A stretch of DNA of 39,833 nt from an uncultured Methanosarcinales archaeon (GTDB lineage Archaea > Nanobdellota > Nanobdellia > Woesearchaeales > CAZPJY01), in NCBI GenBank assembly GCA_964587045.1, contig CAZPJY010000018.1, positions 1 through 39,833 of the forward strand. The letters are read 5' to 3'. Positions 25,699 through 39,833 of this stretch are shown one piece after another (position 1 is the first letter of the stretch; every line of letters starts with the position of its first letter). A model generated the notes under the pieces. That model worked only from the letters and a program-made list of their open reading frames with translations, did not search any database and had not been told where the DNA came from. A program made the translations under genes and the position numbers.

Positions 25699-26802
25699 TT
25701 GAGACTCCACTACAACATCTATCCGGAAGCGCTGGACATCATCAGAAGTGCGGGGCTGGACAGCAGAGTCGACGAGTTGAGTAGGTCAGACGGGCTGCAA
25801 TACATCGTCGGCGCTACCTACACAAGCGACATAGTGGAAAGCGTCAGCGACCTCAAGGGGAGGGGATACTATGACCGTTTTCCCGAGGAGCTCAAGGATC
25901 TTTACAAGCAGGTCATGAACGGTATGGTTAGCAGGCCGGAAGAGTACAGCTGGACCGTCAGACGACAGGCAGGGGAAGAGCGCGTGCCGTGCGAGCTCGA
26001 GGACATGCTCCTCTTCTCAGGCGACATCGCATCCATGATACTCGGGCCATTGGAGATGTGGGACCATGGCAAGCTCGGATTCTCAGGCCCGATCGAGCAG
26101 GTGTCTGTCACCGGGGCGTACATCAAGATGAGGTCCAACGAGATCCTGCCCAAGAGGGGCTACGTCTGGGAGAGGAGGATGGGCGACGGCTCAGTGATCG
26201 TCAGCGAGATTACCGGCGACATGCACGCTGACATGCGCATCTTCCAGACCGACATCGCGCCGTACCCGACCAAGGACCCTTTCGGCCTTCCGGTCAGGAT
26301 GAGGCCTGTAACAGATGAGGACCAAAAGGTCGTGGCTGCTTACCACACGACCGAGGGAATGCTTTTTATTGCGACCCTCAAGTACATCGAGCAGTGCGGC
26401 ATCAGCTCAGACGTCCTGGCCGACGGAGCCAAGGAATTCATCTCCTGGGCAAGGTCGCTTGGCCAGAGCGGAGGCACCTGCACTGAGCATTTCGGCGGTT
26501 TCGACCAGGAGCCATGGAGCTTCTTTTACACCTACAAGTGGCCCCTGCCCCAGCTCGGGGAGGGGGTCAGGAGCGGCTTCAACCTCGTTAGCGCGGGAGA
26601 CATATCCTACGGCGTCTTCGTCGACTCTGAGGACCTGGTCATATCCTACAAGGACAAGGTGTGTGCAAGGTTCGTTCCCGAGGACGCAGACCATCTGCTG
26701 AGGGGGCTAATGCACCAGTGCGCGAAAGGGCTGGGCAGGACCTCTGCTAAGCAGCTGCTGTCGATACTCGAGTACTGGTTTGGGAAAAGTTATTATAGTT
26801 AA
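25699..26802 (+). CDS. Hypothetical cytoplasmic protein
   Basis: 367 aa ORF with coding-like codon bias and a TTG start. No recognised motif. Confidence 0.7.
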   Translation: MRLHYNIYPEALDIIRSAGLDSRVDELSRSDGLQYIVGATYTSDIVESVSDLKGRGYYDRFPEELKDLYKQVMNGMVSRPEEYSWTVRRQAGEERVPCELEDMLLFSGDIASMILGPLEMWDHGKLGFSGPIEQVSVTGAYIKMRSNEILPKRGYVWERRMGDGSVIVSEITGDMHADMRIFQTDIAPYPTKDPFGLPVRMRPVTDEDQKVVAAYHTTEGMLFIATLKYIEQCGISSDVLADGAKEFISWARSLGQSGGTCTEHFGGFDQEPWSFFYTYKWPLPQLGEGVRSGFNLVSAGDISYGVFVDSEDLVISYKDKVCARFVPEDADHLLRGLMHQCAKGLGRTSAKQLLSILEYWFGKSYYS

Positions 26803-26822: not shown

Positions 26823-27416
26823 ATGAAGCAGTACATAATCCCGTTTGCAGTGTACCTCTTCCTCGGGCCTCTGCTGACGTGGCTGGGCCTCGATCCGAGG
26901 TGGGCTTACGCTGCGAAGACCCTGGTTTCCCTCGGGCTTATTGTGTATTACAGGAAGGATTACAGGTTCAGGTTCAGGTGGGACTGGCTGGCTGTCGGCG
27001 CAGGCGTGCTGATCTTCCTGTTCTGGGTGGGGCTTGAGGGCTCATACCCGCTGATCGGCCGGACCTATGAGCTTGCGCCGACGACCTGGTACGTTATCGT
27101 CAGGCTCATCGGCGCGATCGCCCTCGCCCCTGTCATCGAGGAGTTCTTCACCCGCGGCTTCCTGATGAGGATGCTGATCATGCACGACTGGGAGAAGGTG
27201 CCGATTGGCAGGTACACCCTCATGTCGTTCGTTGTCACTATCTTGTTCTTCGGATTCTCTCACCCGCGGTGGCTGCCCGGGCTGCTCACCGGTTACGTCT
27301 TGAATCTCCTCCTCTATAAACGGCGCGACCTTGGCGCTTGCGTCTTGGCTCACGGCGTGGCGAATCTGCTTTTGGCTGCTTATGTCATCGGCTTTGGGGC
27401 CTGGCAGTTCTGGTAG
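26823..27416 (+). CDS. CPBP (type II CAAX/Abi) intramembrane glutamic protease, resembling the PEP-CTERM-associated CAAX subfamily
   Basis: Intact motifs EEFFTRG (EExxxR), FGFSH (FxxxH) and HGVAN (HxxxN). N-terminal PFAVYL...YAAKT...GVLIFLFWVGL pattern recalls TIGR03008 (recognised by eye, not searched). Confidence 0.9.
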   Translation: MKQYIIPFAVYLFLGPLLTWLGLDPRWAYAAKTLVSLGLIVYYRKDYRFRFRWDWLAVGAGVLIFLFWVGLEGSYPLIGRTYELAPTTWYVIVRLIGAIALAPVIEEFFTRGFLMRMLIMHDWEKVPIGRYTLMSFVVTILFFGFSHPRWLPGLLTGYVLNLLLYKRRDLGACVLAHGVANLLLAAYVIGFGAWQFW

Positions 27417-27577
27417 ATATATTTACTGAAAATTTTAAGAAATACTATTGTTATAAAGGGATGACTACTGAAAAAGGGAAATATTTATATAGGTATTAAT
27501 CATCACCTAGTGAAAGATAGGGGGTGTCAGTGATATATTACGTTGTGACAATCTACCCAAAGTTATGACGTGGGGAG

Positions 27578-27605
27578 TTTGGGACAACTACGCAGTGGTG
27601 ACAAA
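27578..27605. promoter_or_regulatory. Palindromic operator-like site upstream of BRE/TATA
   Basis: TTTG-GGAC-AACT-ACGC-AGTG-GTGA-CAAA, followed by ACCGCAAGG TTTTTATAAA. Confidence 0.55.
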
Positions 27606-27677
27606 ACCGCAAGGTTTTTATAAAGAACCTGACTACCCCAATTGAAAATTATGTTAACATAATTGGAGGGAAAGACA

Positions 27678-28166
27678 ATGAAGAAAGCAATCGGAATCTC
27701 AGCTGTGCTCGTGCTGCTGCTTGCAAGCGCTGCCATGGCTGTTGATATGGTGATAACTCCGCAGCTAATACACCTCGATTATACTGACTCAAAAGACGTG
27801 ACAGTCTGCGTGTATAAGGCGGATGGCTCACCATACGCTAACCTGGCTTTGAGCATCACTGCACAGTGCCAAGATCTCAATGGTGATGAGGTTTGCAGCC
27901 CAGCAGAAGATGGCAATGCCGCAGCGATTTTCAACGCTGCTGTGAAGACATCCCCAACTGATGCAAATGGTTGCGGTGAGGTAACACTGACCACAAATAA
28001 CGCTCAAGGCGGAACCTTTGCGTATCATGTCAACAGCATGACTGGCGCTGGCGCTTATGTCGACGAGGAAGCTGGACTCGCTTACATACCCGAGTTCACC
28101 ACAGTCGGTGCTGCTCTCGTCCTGCTCGGTGCAGGTGCGATGGTTCTGCGAAAGAAGAGGAAGTAA
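27678..28166 (+). CDS. PEF-CTERM protein 1 (Ig-like/Big_1-like passenger)
   Basis: Signal MKKAIGISAVLVLLLASAAMA; TDANGCGEVTLTT; tail YIPEFTTVGAALVLLGAGAMVLRKKRK. Confidence 0.88.
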   Translation: MKKAIGISAVLVLLLASAAMAVDMVITPQLIHLDYTDSKDVTVCVYKADGSPYANLALSITAQCQDLNGDEVCSPAEDGNAAAIFNAAVKTSPTDANGCGEVTLTTNNAQGGTFAYHVNSMTGAGAYVDEEAGLAYIPEFTTVGAALVLLGAGAMVLRKKRK

Positions 28167-28190
28167 TTCCTCACATTTTTTTCTGTTTTT
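28157..28190 (+). terminator. Stop-overlapping hairpin plus T-run
   Basis: GAGGAA-GTAA-TTCCTC followed by T-tracts. Confidence 0.45.
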
Positions 28191-28210
28191 CAAATAGGGG
28201 GGTGTGAAGT

Positions 28211-28555
28211 GTGAAGATAGTTGGGCTAATGTTTCTATTATCTATAGTGTTGGCTCTATCGGCAGCTGCCTCATTTTGCGTCGACTGCGCAGGAGGATGC
28301 ATGTACCCGATGGACGCCGCCGGAAACGTTCTCGGACCATCACAGGATTGCCCGCCCATTCCTAATTGTGTCTGCCAAGAGGTAGTACCTGTCGGCGGCA
28401 ATCCGAGCTCAGGCTATGTTGAACCTCAGACTCCTGGCGTGTACTGGGAGGGTCAGTGTGTAATCGACGAGCCTGACATTCCCGAGTTCACACTCATAGG
28501 TGCCGGACTTGCGATGCTCGGCGCCGGTATCATAATCTGGAGGAGGACAAAATGA
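28211..28555 (+). CDS. PEF-CTERM protein 2 (small Cys-rich)
   Basis: Signal peptide; tail DIPEFTLIGAGLAMLGAGIIIWRRTK. Confidence 0.88.
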   Translation: MKIVGLMFLLSIVLALSAAASFCVDCAGGCMYPMDAAGNVLGPSQDCPPIPNCVCQEVVPVGGNPSSGYVEPQTPGVYWEGQCVIDEPDIPEFTLIGAGLAMLGAGIIIWRRTK

Positions 28556-29025
28556 AAGGTATGCTTAGTCTCATAATATTTATCTTGATGGCAGGCATGG
28601 CCTTGGCGGCACCTGTGAAGATCACTGGTGCGGGTGAGGCGTATGGCCACCATGGCTCATGCGGCTCATGGAATGGCTGCGGCAATGCGGAGACCTGCGC
28701 CCAGTGGGCGTGTGAAATCAACGGATTCGGTACAGCCGTCTCTTATGTTGCGACCAATTGCTTCGCGCTAAGTGACAAGGACTGCCAGCTTTTCAGCGAA
28801 AAGGACAGTGTCGATTGCGGTTGGGATATGAACTGCGACGTCCCTGTTGTGACCGATATATGGTGTGACGACGGCTCGTACAGCGGCTACTGCTTCGCTG
28901 AACTGCCACCTCAGGAGAATGCGCCTGAGGGCGATGGAGATATTCCTGAGTTCACAGCGATCGGCGCTGGACTTGCGATGCTCGGCGCAGCTGGTTTCAT
29001 CGCGATTAGGAAGAAATTATATTAA
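28552..29025 (+). CDS. PEF-CTERM protein 3 (Cys-rich)
   Basis: Signal peptide; HHGSCGSWNGCGNAETCAQWAC; tail DIPEFTAIGAGLAMLGAAGFIAIRKKLY. Confidence 0.88.
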   Translation: MKGMLSLIIFILMAGMALAAPVKITGAGEAYGHHGSCGSWNGCGNAETCAQWACEINGFGTAVSYVATNCFALSDKDCQLFSEKDSVDCGWDMNCDVPVVTDIWCDDGSYSGYCFAELPPQENAPEGDGDIPEFTAIGAGLAMLGAAGFIAIRKKLY

Positions 29026-29039
29026 TAGGGGGTGTAAGA

Positions 29040-29987
29040 ATGAAACGATTGATGATTGTATTGCTATTACTCATCATGGCGACGAGTGTCTTGGCAGAGA
29101 CTGTGGTCGATGTGACCATTACAGATCCGCAGGACAGTGACGTAACGTGCGCTGATGAGATCTGTGTTTACGGATTTGCGACAGCTGTCGGTGGAGGCGG
29201 CGAGCTCGATGTCATCTTCGTTATGGACACGTCAGGCAGTATGGGCTGGAATGATCCATCAGAATACCGAAAGATCGGGGCAAAAGCGCTTATAGACGTT
29301 CTTCCCGAAGGGACCCAAGTTGCTATCGCTGTTGAGGATTTCGATTCATGGGCTACAGTCGTGCTTCCTTTCACTGATGACCATGCTGCGGCGAAGGCTG
29401 CGATTGATGCCCTTGATGCCGCCGGCGGCACTGATATCGGCTACGCCCTTGAGGTTGCGAATAGTTATATGATCGCAAATGGAAGGGTCGGAGCTGCACA
29501 TGTGGAGATCCTCTTCACCGATGGGGACGACTCCTCCAACACAGCGACTCCAGCGGCCACTGCTGCTGCGAACAGCATAGTCATCCATACCATGGGCCTT
29601 GGAAGTGGTGTGAACGCCGCAAAGCTGCAGGCAATCGCTGATACGACCGGCGGCACATACACGTATGTCGATGACCCGGCAAACCTGCCCAACGTCTTCC
29701 CGGCGCTTTCGCTCACAAACATTGTTGGCGTTACGGTGAACGGGAATGCGGCGACGCTGTACCCGAATGGAAATTTCGAGTATTGCTGGCTGCCACTCTC
29801 TTTCGGGCCGAACACGATCATTGCGGAAGCCACTGCAACTGACCAGACGACTGGCTTCGATGAGATAACTGTTGAGCGTACCGATATTTGCGGTGAGCCT
29901 GGTGACATACCAGAGTTTACCGTAATTGGTGCAGGACTCGCGCTGCTGGGCGCAGCTGGTTTTATCGCGTTCAAGAAGAGGAAGTAA
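29040..29987 (+). CDS. PEF-CTERM protein 4 (vWA domain)
   Basis: MIDAS DTSGSM, GGTDIG, FTDG and LQAIADTTGGTY; tail DIPEFTVIGAGLALLGAAGFIAFKKRK. Confidence 0.92.
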   Translation: MKRLMIVLLLLIMATSVLAETVVDVTITDPQDSDVTCADEICVYGFATAVGGGGELDVIFVMDTSGSMGWNDPSEYRKIGAKALIDVLPEGTQVAIAVEDFDSWATVVLPFTDDHAAAKAAIDALDAAGGTDIGYALEVANSYMIANGRVGAAHVEILFTDGDDSSNTATPAATAAANSIVIHTMGLGSGVNAAKLQAIADTTGGTYTYVDDPANLPNVFPALSLTNIVGVTVNGNAATLYPNGNFEYCWLPLSFGPNTIIAEATATDQTTGFDEITVERTDICGEPGDIPEFTVIGAGLALLGAAGFIAFKKRK

Positions 29988-30011
29988 TTCCTCAAATTTT
30001 TCAATTTTTTT
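29978..30011 (+). terminator. Stop-overlapping hairpin plus T-run
   Basis: Identical GAGGAA-GTAA-TTCCTC followed by T-tracts. Confidence 0.45.
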
Positions 30012-30021
30012 GGGTGATAAA

Positions 30022-30588
30022 ATGAAACAGGGAATGCTGTTAATTATGCTGATAATGTTGTCTTCAGTAGCTGCAGGAGGAGAATTAGCTTTATTTGTCC
30101 CGCAATGTACCCTTCCTGGGGTAAACGTGGCACACAATCCGGGCGCCTCCATCGTCGTCTGTGACGATCCGCAGGACTCGACGTGCGAGCAGGACTTCGC
30201 GACCCTTTGCCCGGTAGGCTATGACCTATGCACTGCAGACCAGTACAACGCCGGGAACGACAACTGGGACGGTACGGTAACCGAGCGGATGCTCGGCGAG
30301 ATCCACTGCCGGGGCCAAAATATAGATTCGGGCGCTGGGCATTACTCCATCTGGACCAAGGATGTACCTTATAGTGTCGATGTGCCTGATAACGATATAG
30401 CTGGCTCTTCCATCCCAGGGGTTTGCGAGTCTAACTACGGCTGCAACGAGCAGTGGTACTACGCACTCTGCTGCGCAGAGGACGTGCCTGAAGATGATGG
30501 CGGTGACATTCCTGAGTTCACAGCCATAGGGGCAGGCCTGGCTTTGCTTGGTGCTGCGGGCTTAGTGGCTTTCAGGAAGAGGAAGTAA
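30022..30588 (+). CDS. PEF-CTERM protein 5 (Cys-rich)
   Basis: Start MKQGMLLIML after GGGTGA; tail DIPEFTAIGAGLALLGAAGLVAFRKRK. Confidence 0.88.
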   Translation: MKQGMLLIMLIMLSSVAAGGELALFVPQCTLPGVNVAHNPGASIVVCDDPQDSTCEQDFATLCPVGYDLCTADQYNAGNDNWDGTVTERMLGEIHCRGQNIDSGAGHYSIWTKDVPYSVDVPDNDIAGSSIPGVCESNYGCNEQWYYALCCAEDVPEDDGGDIPEFTAIGAGLALLGAAGLVAFRKRK

Positions 30589-30610
30589 CGAAAGGTTTTT
30601 ATATTCTTTT

Positions 30611-30627
30611 TTACTTCTTAGTAGTAA
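30611..30627. promoter_or_regulatory. Palindrome just downstream of a TATA-like box
   Basis: TTACTTCTTAGTAGTAA, 15/17 identical to 35524..35540; preceded by CGAAAGG TTTTTATA. Confidence 0.55.
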
Positions 30628-30693
30628 ATTATTACTTAAGGGTAATTATTATAAAGAAACGGAAGATCCACAAGACCTTCCAAAGGTGAGAAA

Positions 30694-31161
30694 ATGAACA
30701 AAAGCATTGTATATGTCATGCTGATTACACTTCTAGCATCAATAGCAACCGCCACACCTGGAGCTATTTGGACCACAGATGCTGCTGGCGTGCCTCAGGA
30801 TCAGAACATCTACGCACCTGGCCAGTGGGTCTACATCAAGGCTGCAAACCTTGAAGCGAGCGCAACATGCCCGTATGAAATCATCGATGTCGGCCAAGGC
30901 AACCTTGCTATATTCAACGGTGATGTTACAACAGACAGCAATGGTGACATCATCACGCCTCAGTTCGTCTTTGACACCACTAGTGCTGATGACGGCGTTT
31001 ACAAGGTTGAGGTCACATGCCCTGGTGCAGGGAAGAAGTCGGACAACTTCAAGGTCGAAGGGGCTGACGACGGCGACGGTGATGTTCCCGAGTTCACGAC
31101 CATCGGTGCTGCTCTTGCCCTTGCAGGTGCTGGCTTCGTGGTGTGGCGAAGAAAGCGGTAA
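30694..31161 (+). CDS. PEF-CTERM protein 6 (beta-sandwich-like)
   Basis: Signal peptide; GAIWTT...NIYAPGQWVYI; tail DVPEFTTIGAALALAGAGFVVWRRKR. Confidence 0.88.
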   Translation: MNKSIVYVMLITLLASIATATPGAIWTTDAAGVPQDQNIYAPGQWVYIKAANLEASATCPYEIIDVGQGNLAIFNGDVTTDSNGDIITPQFVFDTTSADDGVYKVEVTCPGAGKKSDNFKVEGADDGDGDVPEFTTIGAALALAGAGFVVWRRKR

Positions 31162-31195
31162 ACCATTTTTTTTAACTTTCTAACAACTTCTAATT

Positions 31196-31223
31196 CTTGA
31201 TACCACTCATTAGTGACTTCAAA
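31196..31223. promoter_or_regulatory. Palindromic operator-like site upstream of BRE/TATA
   Basis: CTTG-ATAC-CACT-CATT-AGTG-ACTT-CAAA, followed by ATAGCAAGGC TTTTAAATA. Confidence 0.65.
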
Positions 31224-31321
31224 ATAGCAAGGCTTTTAAATAACCTATTTCTCACCCCCTGTTACATCAGGATTAATTTTTTTGATTCATAAGCAAACCA
31301 TTCGAATGGAGGAATAAGAAA

Positions 31322-31978
31322 ATGATGAAGATTTTGGTAACAGCGATGATGCTCGTCCTACTGGCGGGCATGGTGTCTGCAGCGGATGTTGTTTTACTGC
31401 AGGAGGATTTCGAGACAGGATATGACGGGTGGACTGTCTTCGGCGGCGATGGCGTCTTTGACGTTACAACCGATGATAGTTACAGCTACAGGCGAAGCTG
31501 CCCTGGAGATTTCTCCGCGTGCGGAGGCGACGGTAAGAATGATTATTTCGAGGCTGAGGATGATGCTGGGATTAAAGTACAGATTGATGCTTCCCAGTGC
31601 TCTCAGGATGCTGTCGTGACCTTCTGGACAAGGACCAGAAGTGCGGGCTCTGGCGACGATGCCACATTCTCTTACAGCCTTACTGGTTTAGGGCAGGAGA
31701 AGTATTGGCTAAGATTAGTCGAGCGCCGAGGAGACAGCTGGGTACAGTATGCTGAGACCATACCCGGTTCGGCCGGTACCACGTTCTATGCAGCGTTCTG
31801 GCTGAATGACGGTGAAGGCGACTATGGCCTATTCGACGACATCGAAGTGACCTGCGCGATCAGCGATGACGGCGGAGATCCTGGACAGCCAGGAGATGAC
31901 ATCCCAGAGTTCACGACCATCGGTGCTGCGCTGGCTCTTGCCGGTGCTGGATTTGTCATCTGGCGAAAGAAGCGATAA
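31322..31978 (+). CDS. PEF-CTERM protein 7 (MAM/CBM-like jelly-roll)
   Basis: LLQEDFETGYDGWT...FDDIEV; tail DIPEFTTIGAALALAGAGFVIWRKKR. Confidence 0.88.
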   Translation: MMKILVTAMMLVLLAGMVSAADVVLLQEDFETGYDGWTVFGGDGVFDVTTDDSYSYRRSCPGDFSACGGDGKNDYFEAEDDAGIKVQIDASQCSQDAVVTFWTRTRSAGSGDDATFSYSLTGLGQEKYWLRLVERRGDSWVQYAETIPGSAGTTFYAAFWLNDGEGDYGLFDDIEVTCAISDDGGDPGQPGDDIPEFTTIGAALALAGAGFVIWRKKR

Positions 31979-32011
31979 ATAAGATTTTTCTTTTTTTAAT
32001 CTTCCTTTCTC

Positions 32012-32039
32012 TTTGATACCACTCAGTAGTGACTTCAAA
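32012..32039. promoter_or_regulatory. Palindromic operator-like site upstream of BRE/TATA
   Basis: TTTG-ATAC-CACT-CAGT-AGTG-ACTT-CAAA, 26/28 identical to 31196..31223, followed by CTCGAAAGG TTTAATAA. Confidence 0.65.
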
Positions 32040-32121
32040 CTCGAAAGGTTTAATAATAAGTTAATTTCAACCACCCAGAAAGCTTCGGTTTTAACATATT
32101 TCGGAATATGGAGGAAATAAA

Positions 32122-32679
32122 ATGAATAAGATTTTTGTAACAGCTTTGATGCTTGTCCTGATGGCAGGTATAGTGTCCGCGTGCCCTCCGCAAGGTCTCA
32201 CCTGTCCGGCTGGGACTGTTGAGGTGTACGGGGCTTCAGTAGCGGATGAGAAAGGAGCGGGCAACTCTGCCTGGGCAGTGGGAGCTCCTGACAACGCTTG
32301 GGCGACAATCTACAACTTCGCAGGCAATTACATCACCCTGGATATGGGTGCTGACGTGGTTGATTTGGTCGGCGTTGACCTGGAGATGTTCGGCGACTCA
32401 AGTTCAGAGAGCGTCAATATCTACGTCTCACAGAACCCGACCAGCGGCTTCGAGTGGGCAGGCGACCTCACCAATGAGGGTGTCGTCAACTTTCATGCCA
32501 CAAGCTATGATACCATCAGATATGTGAAGGTCGTCAATCCAAGCTACAGCAAATACGTCGAAGTCGACGCTGTGAAGGGATGCGCGAATGAGCAGGAGGA
32601 TGTTCCTGAGTTCACGACCCTAGGCGCTGCGCTGGCTCTTGCAGGTGCTGGATTCGTCGTCTGGCGAAAGAAGAAATAA
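32122..32679 (+). CDS. PEF-CTERM protein 8 (galactose-binding-like jelly-roll)
   Basis: AVGAPD...GNYITLDMG...IRYVKV...EVDAV; tail DVPEFTTLGAALALAGAGFVVWRKKK. Confidence 0.88.
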   Translation: MNKIFVTALMLVLMAGIVSACPPQGLTCPAGTVEVYGASVADEKGAGNSAWAVGAPDNAWATIYNFAGNYITLDMGADVVDLVGVDLEMFGDSSSESVNIYVSQNPTSGFEWAGDLTNEGVVNFHATSYDTIRYVKVVNPSYSKYVEVDAVKGCANEQEDVPEFTTLGAALALAGAGFVVWRKKK

Positions 32680-32824
32680 ATTCCCTTTTGTTTTTACTAA
32701 TTCTTTTTTATCTTATCACCATTCTCCAAGATACCTTTTTATATAAGTTTGAGCAAGCATCCCACGAAATGCCAATATCCTGTTCTTAGCAGGAGTTATT
32801 TGTCACGGGCATGGAGGAGAAAAT

Positions 32825-33238
32825 ATGAGACATGTTGTTTTATCTGCTTTGACACTGATTTTATTCGCTAACTTTGTTGTTGGGTCTATCGGTGCGCCCA
32901 CATGCGATCCAACCGCGTGCGAAGCGCTTTCGAATTCTTGTGCAGTCCGCTACTGCGTTCCAGTAGCGGTCGGGGTTGGTATGGTATGCGGGGGAAACTA
33001 TATGGAGTTGGGAACACCCTGCTCTGATGATGGTAATGAATGTACTGTCGGGATGTGCCTTGACGCCCAGTGCCTGGCCGAAGTCGCCGTCCAGGATGGC
33101 ACTCCATGCTCATCGGGCTCCTGCGTGCAGGGGCAATGCATACCGGACGAACCTGATATTCCCGAGTTCACCGCGATCAGTGCGGGAGTCGCACTGCTGG
33201 GCGCTGCAGGTTTTATAGCGCTGAAACGCTGGAAATAA
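32825..33238 (+). CDS. PEF-CTERM protein 9 (Cys-rich, CxDDGNxCT repeat)
   Basis: GTPCSDDGNECTVGMC...DGTPCSSGSCVQGQC; tail DIPEFTAISAGVALLGAAGFIALKRWK. Confidence 0.88.
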   Translation: MRHVVLSALTLILFANFVVGSIGAPTCDPTACEALSNSCAVRYCVPVAVGVGMVCGGNYMELGTPCSDDGNECTVGMCLDAQCLAEVAVQDGTPCSSGSCVQGQCIPDEPDIPEFTAISAGVALLGAAGFIALKRWK

Positions 33239-33464
33239 TTCCTTTTTAAATTTTTTTAACTTTCTTTTTAATGGGTATAGTTTCTATCACATAAATATTT
33301 ATTTATACTCAAAATCATGTAATTTTTTTCGGGGGGTAGGTATGACCTTAAGCAACCGACTAACATTATTGTAGATTTGTCTCAAAAAGTCGAATCTCGT
33401 TACTGCAGCAAACATCAAACCTCCATTCTATAAGAAAAGATATAAGAAAACAAAGGTGGAAAAC

Positions 33465-34103
33465 ATGAAAAAACTATTAGTGCTATTAGTGGCAATGGTG
33501 CTACTCGCGACAATGGCTAGCGCGACAGTGATGGATGATTTCTTGGACATCGGCAATGCAGCTGATGAGGCCGTGCATAACGCTGCCGGTTGGGGGGCTG
33601 TGAGCGGCGGTTTCTATGGGGATTATGACCGCAGTGACTCAATTGATGATGAGGGCGCTGGCGTTCAGAAGGACATCAGGGTCGTGTGGGATGTAGGCTG
33701 CGCTGATCAAACCAACACGGCATCGTTCGACCTGAACGCAGGCGCGAATACCGCGGTCGGCATCGTGTTCAGGTCGCTGGACGGCATCAGCGGCGCTGAC
33801 AGCTATGAGGTCTATGCGAACGGCAACTATGTGGGGACTTACCCTGAGGACGGCTATGTTGTGAGCGAGATATGGAACACTGTTGGATTCCAGCTTCCGA
33901 TGCCCATGACAGGCATCATACACGTAGAGATCGTTGCTATCGACCCGGCGTGGGGCTCCTGCAGCTCATGGGGCCAGGTCGCGATGAGCTGGTCTTATCT
34001 TGTGTATAAACAGGGAGATATCCCAGAATTCACCACCATCGGTGCGGCCCTCGCTTTGCTTGGAGCTGCCGGATTCGTCGCAATCAAGAAGAGAAAGCAG
34101 TAA
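33465..34103 (+). CDS. PEF-CTERM protein 10
   Basis: Signal MKKLLVLLVAMVLLATMASA; tail DIPEFTTIGAALALLGAAGFVAIKKRKQ. Confidence 0.88.
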   Translation: MKKLLVLLVAMVLLATMASATVMDDFLDIGNAADEAVHNAAGWGAVSGGFYGDYDRSDSIDDEGAGVQKDIRVVWDVGCADQTNTASFDLNAGANTAVGIVFRSLDGISGADSYEVYANGNYVGTYPEDGYVVSEIWNTVGFQLPMPMTGIIHVEIVAIDPAWGSCSSWGQVAMSWSYLVYKQGDIPEFTTIGAALALLGAAGFVAIKKRKQ

Positions 34104-34125
34104 TCCCTACCAGGAGTTGACGACG

Positions 34126-35451
34126 ATGAAAACGATAGTGTACATTCTGTTGGTGCTATTCTGTATGGGATTCGCATCAGCGGCAACGATAAGCATCGAT
34201 GAGGATGGCGGAGATGCCAACACGTACAAGGGGACGCTTGATTACATGGATCCGAGCGTCAATGTCGAATTCGACTATCCGTACAGCCATCAGCATAGGC
34301 TCACAGGGACAATTACCGCCGAAGGGCTCAAGCCTGATTTCACGTACCAGGTCAAGCTCATGGGCAAGCCAACATGCCTGTACGGGGCCAGCGGAGACGA
34401 CGATGCCAACGAATACCTCGGCTATGCAGGAAGATGGACCTGCGCGGACTGCGGAGGCACTGCGCTCTCAAGGAACCGTAATGACGCACAGTATCTCGCA
34501 AACAGTTACTATAAGGGTGATGGGTCAGAGTGCATACAGGGATACTTGGTGTTCGACTATTTCACCACTGATAGCGGGGGTGACATGTCAGGCAAGGTGG
34601 TACTGTCCGACAGCAGCTACCACGTACTCTGGTGCAACGGAGGAGTGTGCGGCACATCAGTTAATAGCTTTCTTGTCGATGGGCTTTGCGCCCCGGGAGA
34701 TGTGGAAGGCCAGATAGAGAGAGGCTCATGCGGCTCTCTCATCCTCAATCCGGGCACATATGAGGCTGTCATCGCCCTCACTGAAGAGTCTTTCCACCAG
34801 GGTGACTGGGCGACCGTCCTCAAGAAGGACATCGAGTTCGAGATAACCGACGGTGTCGTGGAACCGCCAGTGTGTGACCAGGAACTCGACTACATCAACA
34901 TCGGTGATCCGGCGAGCGAGGACGGCCATGACCTGCAGGGCTGGAGTGATGTGAACGGCAATTGGGTTCCAGGTGCTTCGACCTACGGCTACGGGCCTGC
35001 TGATCAGACCTTCAGGCTGTTGATGGGCTCTGGGGATGGCTGCGGCGACGCGTTCAGGGAAGCTTATCTGAGCTTCGATGTCGGAACGAATGTGGCATAT
35101 TCGCTCGAGTTCGAGCACCTGGATGGGAGTCAGCCTGACGAGTTCGAGGTGTATGTGTGGTACAATGAGGCCTGGGAGCCCATCGGCACGTATTACCAGG
35201 CGAGCATAACCGAAGACTGGGTCACCACTTCCTTTGACCTGCCGGCGGGCATGACCGGACAGATCGATGTCATGCTCTACTTGATTTCGCCGCAGGTAGG
35301 ATGGTGCATGGACTGGGGCCAGACTGGTTTCAGCTGGGCGAAGGTCTACGGGTGCACACAGCAAGAGGACATACCCGAGTTCACTACCATCGGCGCTGGT
35401 CTTGCACTGCTGGGCGCTGCAGGTTTCGTGGCCTTGAGAAGGAAGAAATAA
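34126..35451 (+). CDS. PEF-CTERM protein 11 (two-domain; C-domain paralogous to protein 10)
   Basis: Start MKTIVYILLV after CAGGAG; tail DIPEFTTIGAGLALLGAAGFVALRRKK. Confidence 0.88.
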   Translation: MKTIVYILLVLFCMGFASAATISIDEDGGDANTYKGTLDYMDPSVNVEFDYPYSHQHRLTGTITAEGLKPDFTYQVKLMGKPTCLYGASGDDDANEYLGYAGRWTCADCGGTALSRNRNDAQYLANSYYKGDGSECIQGYLVFDYFTTDSGGDMSGKVVLSDSSYHVLWCNGGVCGTSVNSFLVDGLCAPGDVEGQIERGSCGSLILNPGTYEAVIALTEESFHQGDWATVLKKDIEFEITDGVVEPPVCDQELDYINIGDPASEDGHDLQGWSDVNGNWVPGASTYGYGPADQTFRLLMGSGDGCGDAFREAYLSFDVGTNVAYSLEFEHLDGSQPDEFEVYVWYNEAWEPIGTYYQASITEDWVTTSFDLPAGMTGQIDVMLYLISPQVGWCMDWGQTGFSWAKVYGCTQQEDIPEFTTIGAGLALLGAAGFVALRRKK

Positions 35452-35523
35452 ATTTTTTTTATCTCTTTTCCTTATTTTAACCACTATTTAGTAATTATAA
35501 TAGGAAGATTTATATATTATTAT

Positions 35524-35540
35524 TTACTACTAAGTAGTAA
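35524..35540. promoter_or_regulatory. Palindrome between TATA box and start codon
   Basis: TTACTACT-A-AGTAGTAA, a perfect inverted repeat. TTTATATA at 35509; ATG at 35542. Confidence 0.6.
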
Positions 35541-35541
35541 C

Positions 35542-36045
35542 ATGAAGATATTTGCTCTATCGCTGATGATATTGGTCATGCTAAGCCTAGCTTCTGCCGC
35601 AGACCCTGTAGTCATGCCCTACAACTGCGCTGGCTTCGGCCAGAACGAGTTTGACGTCGGAGATGACATCTGCGTCTACGGCACAGGCTTCTCAGAAGGT
35701 CAGGAGTACGACATCCACATCGTGGAGGATCAAGGGGCCTACAACGCAGGGGACAGCCCCACCATAGTAGCGACCAAGACAGTCCAGACCTCTGGATTCG
35801 TGCTGGGCTTGACCAAGCTCTGGACAGCTGTCAAGGCAGGATTCTACGACCTTTTCGTCGACTCAGACCAGGACTCACAGTATTCGGAAGGCGACAGCGT
35901 CAACATCGGCGAGGGTCCTGGGGTAACAGTTAGAGGCGACGATACTGAAGACCCGCCGCAGCCCGAGGTCCCCGAGTTCTCGACAGTGACCGCACTCCTC
36001 GCTCTGATAGGAGCAGGTATAATCATAAGGAGGAAATCAGGATGA
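35542..36045 (+). CDS. PEF-CTERM protein 12 (divergent tail)
   Basis: Signal peptide; tail EVPEFSTVTALLALIGAGIIIRRKSG. Confidence 0.85.
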   Translation: MKIFALSLMILVMLSLASAADPVVMPYNCAGFGQNEFDVGDDICVYGTGFSEGQEYDIHIVEDQGAYNAGDSPTIVATKTVQTSGFVLGLTKLWTAVKAGFYDLFVDSDQDSQYSEGDSVNIGEGPGVTVRGDDTEDPPQPEVPEFSTVTALLALIGAGIIIRRKSG

Positions 36046-36773
36046 AAGCCGCCCTCCTTATACCAATAATGTTCATACTGGCAGCTATCTCAGTTTACGG
36101 CAACGCTGCCTGCTATAACGACCAAGGCCAGCCTTTCTGCTCGCCGCAGGACAGTTTTTGCGAGTACAGGAACGGAGCTGCTGAAGCCTCGGATGCTGAC
36201 GGCGACGGCTGGACTGACAGCTGCGACGCCTTCGCCCAGGACGCGTCCGAATGGATCGACCTGGACGCGGACGGCTGCGGCCACAACGCAGACATAGACG
36301 ACCTGGATGCAGCTGAGACCAGCGGATGCGACGATTCAGGGGATGAAGGCGCAAACGAAGAGATTGGAGATGATGAGCCTGGCGACGATGCAGCAGGCGA
36401 TGAGACGCCTGCACCAGTCTTCCAAGCCAGCAACACAGGAGGCCACCATTTCAAGGCTCCTGAATTCCCGCCTGAGCACCCGTCAGAGCCTCCACAGGAG
36501 CAGGTAGGGCAAGGTCCGGCAGAGGAGCCGCAAGAGCAGCTGCCACAGGAGCAGCCTGAGGAACCTGCTCCTGAGCAGCCCCAGGAAGAGGAAGGGATTG
36601 GACCAGCTGTCGTTCCAGTTGTGTCTGAGCCTCCCAGAGAGCCTCCGTTCCCCTTGGCAGTGGTGCTCGCGATGACCCTCTTTGCGGTCTCGATCTTCAA
36701 GACCCTCCCCCCGTTCAAGGAGCCGCTGAAAAACCCTACCTTCGGACAGGCTGTCAAGCACTTCCTCTTCTAG
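36042..36773 (+). CDS. Membrane-anchored protein with thrombospondin type 3-like Ca-binding repeats and Pro/Glu stalk
   Basis: Signal peptide; DADGDGWTDSCDAF...WIDLDADGCGHNADIDD; PEQPQEE stalk; TM PLAVVLAMTLFAVSIF. No terminal PEF tail. Confidence 0.75.
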   Translation: MKAALLIPIMFILAAISVYGNAACYNDQGQPFCSPQDSFCEYRNGAAEASDADGDGWTDSCDAFAQDASEWIDLDADGCGHNADIDDLDAAETSGCDDSGDEGANEEIGDDEPGDDAAGDETPAPVFQASNTGGHHFKAPEFPPEHPSEPPQEQVGQGPAEEPQEQLPQEQPEEPAPEQPQEEEGIGPAVVPVVSEPPREPPFPLAVVLAMTLFAVSIFKTLPPFKEPLKNPTFGQAVKHFLF

Positions 36774-36809
36774 AAACCTTTATATAGCATCCTCTTTTCG
36801 CGTTTATGA

Positions 36810-37850
36810 ATGGATAACGTCTACGCTGTCCTGATGGCTGGAGGGTCAGGGATACGCTTCTGGCCCATGTCCAGGAAGCTGCGGCCCAAGCAGTGCCTGG
36901 CAATAACGGGCAACAATCCTATGGTAGTCGAGACCAAGCTCAGGCTGGCCAAGCTGGTGCCGGACACCAGAATCTTCATATCCACGCGGGAGGAGCTCTA
37001 CAAGCCCCTGAAAACGCTTCTGCCTTCTGTCAGGAGGTTCATCCTGGAGCCGGAGGCCAAGGACACCGCTGCGGCGCTAGGCCTCGCCTGCGCCTACATC
37101 GGGAAGAAGGACACAGAGGCAGTGATTGTTGCTCTGCCCTCAGACCACGACATCAAGCCGGCCAGGAAGTTCGTCGCGACCTTGAAGAGGGCCATCCAGA
37201 CCGCCAGGCAGGGGTACCTGGTGACTGTGGGCATACCCCCTTCGAGGCCTGAGACAGGATACGGCTACATAGCTCCGGGCAAGGCCTTGGGGAAAGGGGC
37301 AGCGAAGGTCGCAAAGTTCGTCGAGAAGCCTGACCTGGACAGGTGCAAGGGCTACTTGAGGCAGGGCTACCTCTGGAACGGCGGGATACTGGTCTTCCGC
37401 TACGACTCCATGATGGAGGCTTTCGCCAAGTTCATGCCCAAGCTGCACAAGGGAATACTGGCCATCCAGCAGTCCATAGACACGCGCTCGGAGGGCAAGA
37501 CCCTGGAGAGGGTGTTCTCCAGCCTCAAGAAGATCTCCATTGACTACGGCGTGCTGGAAAAGGCCCAGAATGTGGCTGTCGTGCGTGCGGACTTCTCTTG
37601 GGACGACGTCGGCGGGTGGGCCGCGATGGAGCGGATTCTCCCCAAGGACGGCAAGGGCAACGCGTCCAAGGGCACAATAACAGGGCTTGAGAGCTCCGGC
37701 AACATAGTCGTGACAGACAAGAAGGTGGCGATGGTCGGCATCAGGGACCTTGTCGTGGTGGAAACGAAAGACGCGATCCTGATCTGCCCAAAAAGCCGTC
37801 TGGGCGAGATGAAGAAGCTCCATAAGAGGCTGCCTTCGAAGTATACCTGA
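36810..37850 (+). CDS. manC: Mannose-1-phosphate guanylyltransferase
   Basis: MAGGSGIRFWPMSR...PKQ, LPSDH, PETGYGYI, FVEKP, WNGG, SIDYGVLEK and WDDVG. Confidence 0.92.
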   Translation: MDNVYAVLMAGGSGIRFWPMSRKLRPKQCLAITGNNPMVVETKLRLAKLVPDTRIFISTREELYKPLKTLLPSVRRFILEPEAKDTAAALGLACAYIGKKDTEAVIVALPSDHDIKPARKFVATLKRAIQTARQGYLVTVGIPPSRPETGYGYIAPGKALGKGAAKVAKFVEKPDLDRCKGYLRQGYLWNGGILVFRYDSMMEAFAKFMPKLHKGILAIQQSIDTRSEGKTLERVFSSLKKISIDYGVLEKAQNVAVVRADFSWDDVGGWAAMERILPKDGKGNASKGTITGLESSGNIVVTDKKVAMVGIRDLVVVETKDAILICPKSRLGEMKKLHKRLPSKYT

Positions 37851-37979: not shown

Positions 37980-39833
37980 ATGAAACGAATGAAATGGTAT
38001 AGGGACCTCATAGAGAGGTACCCTGAGCATGCCTCAGTAATAGGAATAGTGTTATTCCTAGCGGTAGCGACGTATCTGTTCGCTTTTCCGCCCATAACCG
38101 GCTATGTGGTGTTCGAGCCGACAATCGCCAATGGGACCGTTTTCACTTCAAAGGATCTTACATTTACTTGTAATGCTTCTTCTGATCAAATCCTAATTAA
38201 TGTTACTGGAATAATAACTGACGATGTTGGACAAAATCGTACTGAAACAGTCTCTGTGGGTAGCCTCTATTCAAATGCTGAATTAGATTTTAAAAACATT
38301 CCAAATGGCGACTTCTCCTTTGCCTGCCGGGCCTGTACAAGCTCAACATGCGACGAAAGCGCACCGAGCACCTTCACGAATACATATGCAATAACCGGAG
38401 CTCAAGATTTGCCTGTGGTGAACGTGACTTTTGACAATCCCATCAACCCGTTAAAAGACTACAGCCTAGCCAATCACATCTTCTCATCCGTGAATACCCC
38501 ACTTATCGATGATAGGACGGTGTGCAAATGGTACGGATGTGCAAATTTCACGCTCGAAGGGAATGATTACATCCAAAGCGTGATCAAGGTCCCCTGGACA
38601 AATGGGATCGCAATAAGCTATTGGGTCAAGCATGCTACTGAGCCAACCTCAGCCAACGGGCAGCATCACCTTCAGATAGGCAACTCGACCACTATCGACT
38701 CGAATTGGAAGACCATCTGGGACTCAGGTTATGGGGCTGGCCTCGTGGCGCAATTCAAGACATCCGGCGGTGAGGCGACGGTATCCACCTCAGAGGATCA
38801 CGGAACTTCCTCATGGCACCATTATTTCTTCCAGTATGATTCCACAACAGGGAGGACGGAGATATGGAAGGATGGAGTCCTCAAAGAGTTAAAAATCGAC
38901 CCCCAAGGATCCCTGAACGCCCTTGCAAATGAATGGGTAAGGCTAGGAACAGGGAGATACGGAGATTTTGAGGGTTTGATGGATGAAGTCCTGATTTGGA
39001 ACAGGGGGAATTTAACAGAATCTGAGATCACAGCTTTGTATGAGGATAAGAAGCTCGGCACACCGCCAGACCTGGATTTGTATGCAGGCCAGGTGTCATA
39101 TGCCCTTCCTTATGATTTCTCGAGCGACACTAACCAGTTGGACATGTCCGGAAACCTTGAGATAAATATCACTGTTGCTAACGCAGGATTGAATCCCTCA
39201 TCACCTTTCACTACCAGGCTTTACATTGACGGTCAGGAGGTTTGCTCGGACCGTTTTTCGCTTGGGCAGTTTGATGAGATAACGATGAATTGCGATTGGG
39301 CAATAACTCCTGGCTGGCATCAGGGATACGTGATGGTTGATGCGGACAATGAGATTGACGAGGATGCATATGAAGGTGGGGATGAGAGCAACAATAGAAA
39401 GGAGATAATAATCCCCCTGGTGGACCACCCGAGGTTCTGGTTCAACAGCACTGAGTGGGATACTGCGCTTGCCCCTTGGTTTTCTGACAGTAACAACGCA
39501 ATTGGTTACAAAAGCTATGATTGGTATCACTCATTTATTGCAGACGATTTCAATCCTGGCTGGGATGCCGCCGATGTTGACCCGCGAGCGAAGAAGGGAT
39601 ATGAGAATGCTCTCAACTGCTACATAAATAACTACAATAATGCTGAAGCTTGCGAACGGGCGAGGAACCATCTCGAAGGCTGGCTCAACAGCGGATTTGA
39701 CTACACAACAGTTTCGGTCCAGTCATTGCATGAGATAATCTATGTGGGAGCGATTTATGACCTGATGTTCCCCAATCTAACACAAAGCGAAGCTGAGCTG
39801 TACAGTGAGGAATTGGCCCAGACATGCCTTGAC
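37980..39833 (+). CDS. Large surface protein (partial): N-terminal TM, LamG domain, CARDB domain, heparinase II/III-N/DUF4962-like helical domain
   Basis: Manual translation from ATG 37980 is open to the window end. TM followed by ITGYVV; WHHYFFQYD...IWKDG...FEGLMDEVLIWNR..LTESEITALY (LamG); NITVANAG...VMVDADNEIDE...ESNN (CARDB); HPRFWF...GAIYDLMFPNLT. Many N-x-S/T sequons. Confidence 0.8.
   Translation, partial: MKRMKWYRDLIERYPEHASVIGIVLFLAVATYLFAFPPITGYVVFEPTIANGTVFTSKDLTFTCNASSDQILINVTGIITDDVGQNRTETVSVGSLYSNAELDFKNIPNGDFSFACRACTSSTCDESAPSTFTNTYAITGAQDLPVVNVTFDNPINPLKDYSLANHIFSSVNTPLIDDRTVCKWYGCANFTLEGNDYIQSVIKVPWTNGIAISYWVKHATEPTSANGQHHLQIGNSTTIDSNWKTIWDSGYGAGLVAQFKTSGGEATVSTSEDHGTSSWHHYFFQYDSTTGRTEIWKDGVLKELKIDPQGSLNALANEWVRLGTGRYGDFEGLMDEVLIWNRGNLTESEITALYEDKKLGTPPDLDLYAGQVSYALPYDFSSDTNQLDMSGNLEINITVANAGLNPSSPFTTRLYIDGQEVCSDRFSLGQFDEITMNCDWAITPGWHQGYVMVDADNEIDEDAYEGGDESNNRKEIIIPLVDHPRFWFNSTEWDTALAPWFSDSNNAIGYKSYDWYHSFIADDFNPGWDAADVDPRAKKGYENALNCYINNYNNAEACERARNHLEGWLNSGFDYTTVSVQSLHEIIYVGAIYDLMFPNLTQSEAELYSEELAQTCLD

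Follow-up and report, generated by a model that had tools for sequence, protein, structure and literature searches.

The DNA analysed here, referred to as the window, is contig C18 (39,833 nucleotides) of genome G000, an archaeal assembly of 1.6 Mb in 50 contigs with a completeness rated at 100%. A gene for a CPBP intramembrane glutamic protease of the TIGR03008 family was identified at 26823..27416 on the + strand (197 aa), followed by 12 consecutive + strand genes (27678-36045) for proteins with a C-terminal PEF tail. The locus is probably the cargo array and the accessory protease of a two-enzyme, XrtE-like system, in which an exosortase encoded on another contig, C50, carries out the sorting and the CPBP protease is an optional active partner. 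The system is neither sortase-free nor CPBP-only; the exosortase of the Woesearchaeales, the order of G000, together with the PEF variant is a variant of a known sorting system. A preliminary description of the window had placed a CPBP protease with intact motifs at the head of 12 co-oriented PEF-tailed genes, which was confirmed by the motifs, PF02517 and a tail profile. It had also noted that the window contains no exosortase; this was correct, but an exosortase was found on contig C50. The placement of the DNA among the DPANN archaea agreed with the closest named homologues of protease and exosortase, which are Woesearchaeota/Nanoarchaeota proteins.

The PEF tails and the two enzymes

All 12 genes end in [DEY][IV]PEF, a hydrophobic stretch, a K/R cluster and the stop codon, with 24-26 residues from the P to the stop and the consensus DIPEFTTIGAGLALLGAAGFVAxRKKK. 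A signal-peptide-like N-terminus was recognised by eye in each. The cargo proteins are small, acidic and often Cys-rich, and most are without a family match. A Cys as in myxosortase targets had been reported missing from the tails, and indeed 0 of 12 contain one. In a search of the 1.6-Mb genome with the tail profile, 15 places were found and 12 of these were the consecutive genes of the window, so the array is not a product of chance. The other three were an intact PEF gene (C9:952-1551) and two orphan tails (C28:16549-16788 and C2:83961-84095), which have no in-frame start codon or signal peptide and are probably gene remnants. The name PEF-CTERM, used in the preliminary description, was appropriate for the tripartite architecture of PEF motif, transmembrane (TM) segment and basic cluster, but not for membership of TIGR03024. 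No tail reached the cut-off of this model (best 14.2 bits versus 23), and the tails are therefore regarded as a PEF variant and not as model-grade PEF-CTERM. Recent tandem amplification of one cassette was ruled out by the tail DNA, which is only 68% identical on average.

The protease gave 49.3 bits with PF02517 (cut-off 22.4), as the sole match to this family in G000, and 116.2 bits with TIGR03008 (cut-off 81.05), which makes it a member of the suspected family by score. The motifs EEFFTR (E106, E107, R111), FGFSH (H147) and HGVAN (H177, N181) are present, and E106, E107, H147, H177 and N181 are unchanged in 66 of 66 aligned CPBP homologues. This invariance argues that the protease is an active enzyme. 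A relation to myxosortases, raised in the preliminary description, was not borne out. The scores were far below the cut-offs of the Mrt models (Mrt_core 23.2 versus 100 bits, MrtJ 33.3 versus 75, MrtS 18.7 versus 130), and judged by these scores the protein is not a myxosortase. Lysine- and arginine-rich loops at residues 42-55, 106-132 and 164-172 suggest that the catalytic Glu pair lies nearer to the cytoplasm and at a distance from the PEF motif. A 367-aa open reading frame (ORF; 25699-26802), without Pfam or NCBIfam match, is located on the same strand 20 bp upstream of the protease gene. A similar-looking ORF adjoins the CPBP gene of genome G290 on the opposite strand.

The exosortase-family enzyme is encoded on the - strand of C50 (C50:3-971) by an ORF of 323 aa, which runs off the end of this 2.9-kb contig; the closest relatives of full length extend at most about 30 residues further. 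PF09721 was matched at C50:3-758 with 68.9 bits (cut-off 25.7) and TIGR04178 with 55.9 bits (cut-off 23), and the triad Cys239, Arg286 and His307 is intact. The nearest named subfamily was the N-terminal half of XrtE, under the cut-off, and ArtC was not listed. An ArtC (TIGR03762) search of the 50 contigs of G000 was empty, and the same search was positive in ArtC genomes. In a quick tree of exosortases, the G000 enzyme was placed in a clade of seven members (SH-aLRT, an approximate likelihood-ratio test, 99), all from genomes with both CPBP and PEF tails. The tree is a quick one that places ArtC and XrtE on long branches, and it is therefore not used to name a donor or a sister group of the Woesearchaeales exosortases. 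Upstream of the exosortase gene, C50 encodes a 107-aa membrane protein (937-1260) and a larger protein (1297-2256), with no family over cut-off. G021, G217 and G290 have this gene pair too, with the order unchanged.

Distribution and gene neighbourhoods

The distribution of the three components was determined in 301 genomes of the order Woesearchaeales, each at least 80% complete and mostly fragmented assemblies; related genomes in these counts are not independent. The TIGR03008 CPBP was found in 20 genomes, the exosortase family in 57 and PEF tails in 37, and all three together in 18. PEF tails were counted at E <= 1e-4, which retained 37 of 40 listed genomes (G072, G232 and G274, with a best E above 1e-4, were dropped), with a profile, A5, built from tails of some of the genomes later counted with it. 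Inspection by eye of 20 check regions showed a terminal tail in all 20, and further loci gave the same result. A match of the first tail profile in G209 was rejected; it had no PEF motif and was absent from the later profile search. The 57 exosortase genomes comprise 56 from the family search and G266, in which a contig end truncates the gene; it was recovered by a lineage-specific profile. Some of the family matches belong to other short subfamilies.

CPBP was found almost exclusively where the exosortase and PEF tails also occur. Exosortase and PEF tails were each present in 19 of 20 CPBP genomes, G235 being the only genome with CPBP and no PEF tail. Half of the PEF genomes were without CPBP: it was found in 19 of these 37, and the exosortase in 30, so that exosortase-type sorting with the PEF variant is present in about one in ten of the Woesearchaeales genomes sampled (30/301). 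PEF tails and exosortase without CPBP were observed in 12 genomes, including G020, G073 and G125 (95-96% complete, 4-10 contigs), in which the PEF genes are beside the exosortase gene or at most 13 kb from it. A single genome (G188) had PEF tails and CPBP without exosortase, six had PEF tails only and 26 exosortase only. PEF tails accompanied the exosortase in 18 of 19 genomes with CPBP versus 12 of 38 without. Unpublished genomes contribute to these tallies: G188 itself, G104 and G277 (two of the 18 with all three parts) and G168 (one of the 12).

A second sample consisted of 141 genomes of the order around the genome of locus L104, a Methanosarcinales bin. PEF tails were found in 74 genomes, ArtC in 55 (54 of them PEF-positive) and the TIGR03008 CPBP in five, which were all PEF-positive and in three of which ArtC was found. 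As 69 of the 74 PEF genomes are without CPBP, the canonical PEF system does not need a TIGR03008 CPBP.

G000, G061, G090 and G217 have PEF genes next to CPBP. The exosortase gene has PEF genes on both sides in G156 and next to it in G020 and G125. A four-base overlap joins the exosortase and CPBP genes of G138, where a PEF gene follows after about 2 kb. At 41 archaeal CPBP loci from GTDB contigs, recovered by an alignment-based scan (a single-protein scan gave none), a PEF gene was present in the fetched flank of 25 and directly beside CPBP in 18. These neighbours were counted by eye, the flanks were often short, and overlap with the numbered genomes is possible. Among the PEF-linked loci are some of ANME-2 type (anaerobic methanotrophic archaea) and some of Argoarchaeum, whose tails are of the canonical type. 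At L104 and L109 an ArtC gene over the cut-off was found at most about 6 kb from CPBP. No PEF gene was found in the nearby flanks of seven ANME-1-type loci (L087-L093). At two of these, L087 and L090, no exosortase was found beside CPBP, the tested neighbours being MutS-like or without assignment; both genomes carry exosortase-family genes elsewhere. The link between CPBP and PEF is real: two archaeal groups that are distant from each other both have the CPBP gene next to PEF genes, and CPBP and exosortase correspond to the two halves of bacterial XrtE. TIGR03008 stays beside PEF cargo with two types of sortase, ArtC and the Woesearchaeales type, yet is missing from most PEF systems. Archaeal CPBPs were grouped apart from the sampled bacterial fusions in a FastTree analysis (SH-like support 100).

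A second, degenerate CPBP-like family was seen directly upstream of PEF genes at L057:2465-3154 (G266) and L079:1477-2151 (G079). It retains EE..R and has lost the histidine of FxxxH; both proteins are PF02517-positive and not TIGR03008. L064:5940-6536 (G090) is a possible further member. The records L115-L117, L120 and L121 are titled Methanosarcinales and carry CPBP and PEF tails of the Woesearchaeales type, either through mislabelling or through transfer.

The preliminary description had proposed, as one of two options, that CPBP is itself the sorting and anchoring enzyme of the PEF tail, a new enzyme-signal pairing. CPBP would then be a sortase of myxosortase type acting on a signal without Cys, and other substrates would be left to the C50 exosortase. 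The adjacency of CPBP and PEF genes in four genomes, the PEF tails of nearly all CPBP genomes and the case of G188 fit this proposal, for which MrtX is a precedent as a CPBP sortase (PMC11980579). It is opposed by the 18 of 37 PEF genomes without a TIGR03008 CPBP, by the low myxosortase scores and by the lack of Cys in the tails. In addition, a scan of the G000 genome with a simple regular expression revealed no tails of PGF type or of any other family that could be substrates of the exosortase. Since the genome holds an exosortase with an intact triad, and since exosortases cover 30 of the 37 PEF genomes compared with 19 for CPBP (and five of 74 in the second sample), CPBP as the only sortase is not supported and is considered highly improbable. 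The outcome that was said to speak against it, an ArtC-like enzyme following the PEF tails while the protease does not, was largely what was observed; the enzyme is an exosortase, but its identity as ArtC did not hold.

Several observations weigh against the two-enzyme reading, with the exosortase as sorting enzyme and CPBP as its optional partner. In G000 the array adjoins CPBP and not the exosortase, and the last residues of the latter, lost at the contig end, were not found elsewhere in the genome. No PEF match was found in 27 of the 57 exosortase genomes. Conversely, an exosortase was not detected with the lineage-specific profile in seven of the 37 PEF genomes (G075, G079, G160, G188, G191, G221 and G283), two of which are rated 97-100% complete; this deeper search covered nine exosortase-negative genomes. 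Six of the seven are without CPBP too, and G188 (91%) has CPBP and genuine PEF tails. Assembly gaps are a plausible cause, because in G000 as well as in G266 the exosortase gene lies at the end of a contig. In the second sample, 20 of 74 PEF genomes were likewise without an ArtC match. The congruence of the exosortase and CPBP trees was not significant (13 genomes, Mantel r 0.22, p 0.16).

Weak exosortase matches in G221 and G075 were found to be unrelated membrane proteins. Genuine PEF arrays without an exosortase found were seen at L054 (G075, five tandem genes), L060 (G191) and L053 (G079), in genomes rated 94-100% complete; G075 and G191 have no PF02517 match either. In G188, a long ORF (L141:6090-8000) has a PEF-TM-basic signal some 100 residues ahead of its stop codon, resembling the internal ArtA signal described in PMC6098224.

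Likeness to known systems and the role of the protease

XrtE (TIGR04162) resembles the G000 system in that an exosortase and a TIGR03008-type CPBP serve a tripartite C-terminal signal. The G000 exosortase matched positions 48-291 and the CPBP positions 328-514 of the 516 in this model, with 55.9 and 85.9 bits, respectively, both under the cut-off of 150. All 20 long homologues of the CPBP protein are 535-596 aa; 17 of them have both PF09721 and PF02517, and six are named exosortase E/protease. Nine Acidobacteriaceae loci are exosortase-CPBP fusions too, and the nearest bacterial relatives found were exosortase E/protease fusions; EpsH-CAAX fusions were noted in PMC1569441. The Woesearchaeales exosortase profile gave 81-102 bits on the bacterial fusions versus 35-41 on ArtC. 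A profile-profile comparison of exosortase with CPBP revealed no homology, as expected. Whereas XrtE is fused and bacterial and has a VPEID signal, G000 has two genes on different contigs and [IV]PEF tails in an archaeal host, and both archaeal proteins form their own groups in trees. No fusion, no score above the TIGR04162 cut-off and no VPEID signal was found in G000, which has a single CPBP genome-wide.

As in G000, the small secreted proteins of the ArtC/PEF-CTERM system (TIGR03762/TIGR03024; treated in PMC5244752) carry PEF-TM-basic tails and are often encoded in clusters, and the same CPBP clade is also found beside canonical PEF genes. The system differs in its ArtC, which is absent from G000 and is on a long separate branch, and in its tails, since those of G000 are under the TIGR03024 cut-off. 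The TIGR03008 (pepcterm_CAAX) proteins of bacterial PEP-CTERM/exosortase systems include the G000 protease by score and by its co-occurrence with an exosortase. The bacterial members go with PEP signals, whereas the G000 protease belongs to an archaeal clade apart from the sampled bacterial XrtE-type sequences and is linked to PEF. The myxosortases (MrtX, MrtC, MrtJ, MrtS and the archaeal MrtA) share motifs and tandem placement with tailed genes, and probably the CPBP fold. Their substrates have an invariant Cys, required for MrtX cleavage (PMC11980579), in contrast to the G000 tails, and their signals are orphans without exosortase (bioRxiv 2023.06.07.544157), whereas G000 has one. The available part of PMC6098224 describes no DPANN exosortase system.

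In the mechanism proposed for G000, the cargo would be exported and held in the membrane by its PEF-TM-basic tail, an architecture that is observed. The C50 exosortase would then cut at or near PEF on the outer face and the protein would become lipid-anchored. This chemistry follows ArtA of Haloferax, which cleaves PGF tails by proteolysis dependent on conserved residues, its substrates becoming lipid-anchored (PMC6098224). The TIGR03008 CPBP, where present, would work with the exosortase and degrade the TM-basic stub left after cleavage; large arrays would depend on this the most. The second option of the preliminary description, a dedicated accessory that clears cleaved tails, agrees with co-occurrence, gene neighbourhood and the XrtE fusion as far as the accessory role is concerned. 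Clearance of the tails is given slightly less than an even chance.

A different role was considered for the protease in view of its fold. The AlphaFold2 (AF2) model had a predicted local distance difference test (pLDDT) score of 95.9. A fold search of 48,161 chains gave SpdC (Z 7.6, root-mean-square deviation (rmsd) 4.1, 130 residues aligned) and MmRce1 (Z 5.7, rmsd 4.5, 161 aligned) as the top two, at modest Z, and a Foldseek search of the PDB with the model gave no match at E <= 0.001. With SpdC as the best structural match, CPBP could be a non-catalytic partner presenting a lipid or substrate to the exosortase Cys, like SpdC for SagB and LnsB for LnsA, a Cys-His enzyme. The CPBP motif residues are dispensable for the action of SpdC and LnsB (bioRxiv 2020.05.21.109470; PMC13559823), and the fusion to exosortases would suit a complex. 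However, the motif residues are invariant in the 66 homologues and poorly conserved in LnsB (PMC13559823), a Z below 8 is weak for a helical bundle, and a long distance often separates the CPBP and exosortase genes. Such a partner, though in part compatible with an optional CPBP beside a sorting exosortase, is unlikely.

In two of 28 aligned exosortases, L067:3466-4896 (G138) and L069:5960-7333 (G200), the catalytic Cys is replaced by Ser (SSG instead of CSG). In both, another Cys was seen four residues upstream, with a TIGR03008 gene and a PEF gene close by. These proteins, both encoded within about 2 kb of a CPBP, fit a division of labour in which the tail would first be cut by CPBP and the exosortase would be left with lipid transfer alone, both being needed where both occur. 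The XrtE fusion, the invariant catalytic residues of CPBP and its direct adjacency to a PEF gene at 18 of 41 archaeal GTDB loci point the same way. Yet 12 PEF genomes with exosortase, and 69 of 74 in the Methanosarcinales sample, are without a TIGR03008 CPBP, the G000 exosortase retains its Cys, and ArtA is itself proteolytic via conserved residues (PMC6098224). This arrangement is quite improbable. In a broader form, with the exosortase kept for lipid transfer or as a scaffold and CPBP cutting the Cys-free PEF tail in its place, as the Cys-to-Ser change of G138 and G200 might indicate, it is improbable too. If true, a CPBP acting on a signal without Cys would be seen for the first time, and exosortase sorting would be split into separable cleavage and anchoring. 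The reading would also bear on whether exosortases and archaeosortases are one-step transpeptidases, treated as an open question in bioRxiv 2023.06.07.544157.

No account of the role of the exosortase-associated CPBP was found in the literature covered; Haft, Payne and Selengut 2012 was outside this coverage and may add information on TIGR03008, XrtE and PEF-CTERM. The split, compact genes of the Woesearchaeales offer a cleaner test bed for this role than the XrtE fusion. In NCBIfam 20.0 the Woesearchaeales exosortase group and the PEF variant are not modelled beyond the family signature. Host-dependent archaea of this group are thought to depend on surface proteins for attachment.

Individual genes of the array

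The protease gene and PEF gene 1 are separated by an AT-rich intergenic region of 261 bp (27417..27677), which may, from a T/A-rich box near 27616, carry the array's own promoter; archaeal promoters are outside the scope of the sigma-70 scan. PEF gene 1 (27678..28166, 162 aa, weak Ig-like (Big_1) match) is the most conserved cargo gene. It is 70-75% identical to genes in G021, G217 and G156 and 35-44% identical to genes at L114-L116, L120 and L121, and its orthologues in relatives usually adjoin CPBP or exosortase. Its product could be the principal surface protein or else a core component.

The genes that follow, all on the + strand and assigned by their tails, are gene 2 (28211..28555, 114 aa, 7 Cys), gene 3 (28552..29025, 157 aa, 10 Cys) and gene 4 (29040..29987, 315 aa), which has a von Willebrand A domain (PF00092, 67.2 bits versus a cut-off of 23.8). 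Gene 5 (30022..30588, 188 aa) has 10 Cys. Weak matches under the cut-off were obtained for gene 6 (30694..31161, 155 aa, PGS-family Ig-like), gene 7 (31322..31978, 218 aa, choice-of-anchor J) and gene 8 (32122..32679, 185 aa, F5/8 type C). Gene 9 (32825..33238, 137 aa) has 12 Cys. Gene 10 (33465..34103, 212 aa) and gene 11 (34126..35451, 441 aa, 13 Cys) have a domain in common (32% identity over 167 aa) that was also found in PEF proteins of relatives. Gene 12 (35542..36045, 167 aa) is the last with a PEF tail. The probable starts at 27678, 30022, 33465 and 34126 lie later than those of the longest ORFs.

A thirteenth gene (36042..36773, + strand), overlapping the stop of gene 12, encodes a secreted acidic Pro-rich protein with a hydrophobic C-terminal stretch, no PEF tail and no family match. 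Its membership in the array is uncertain. Within 26823-37850, the GC content at third codon positions (GC3) was 0.81 in the protease gene and the downstream mannose-1-phosphate guanylyltransferase-like gene versus 0.50-0.67 in the 12 PEF genes, and T-rich spacers were seen behind most of the latter. At the end of the window, a long secreted-looking ORF of lower GC (37991-39833) runs off the contig.

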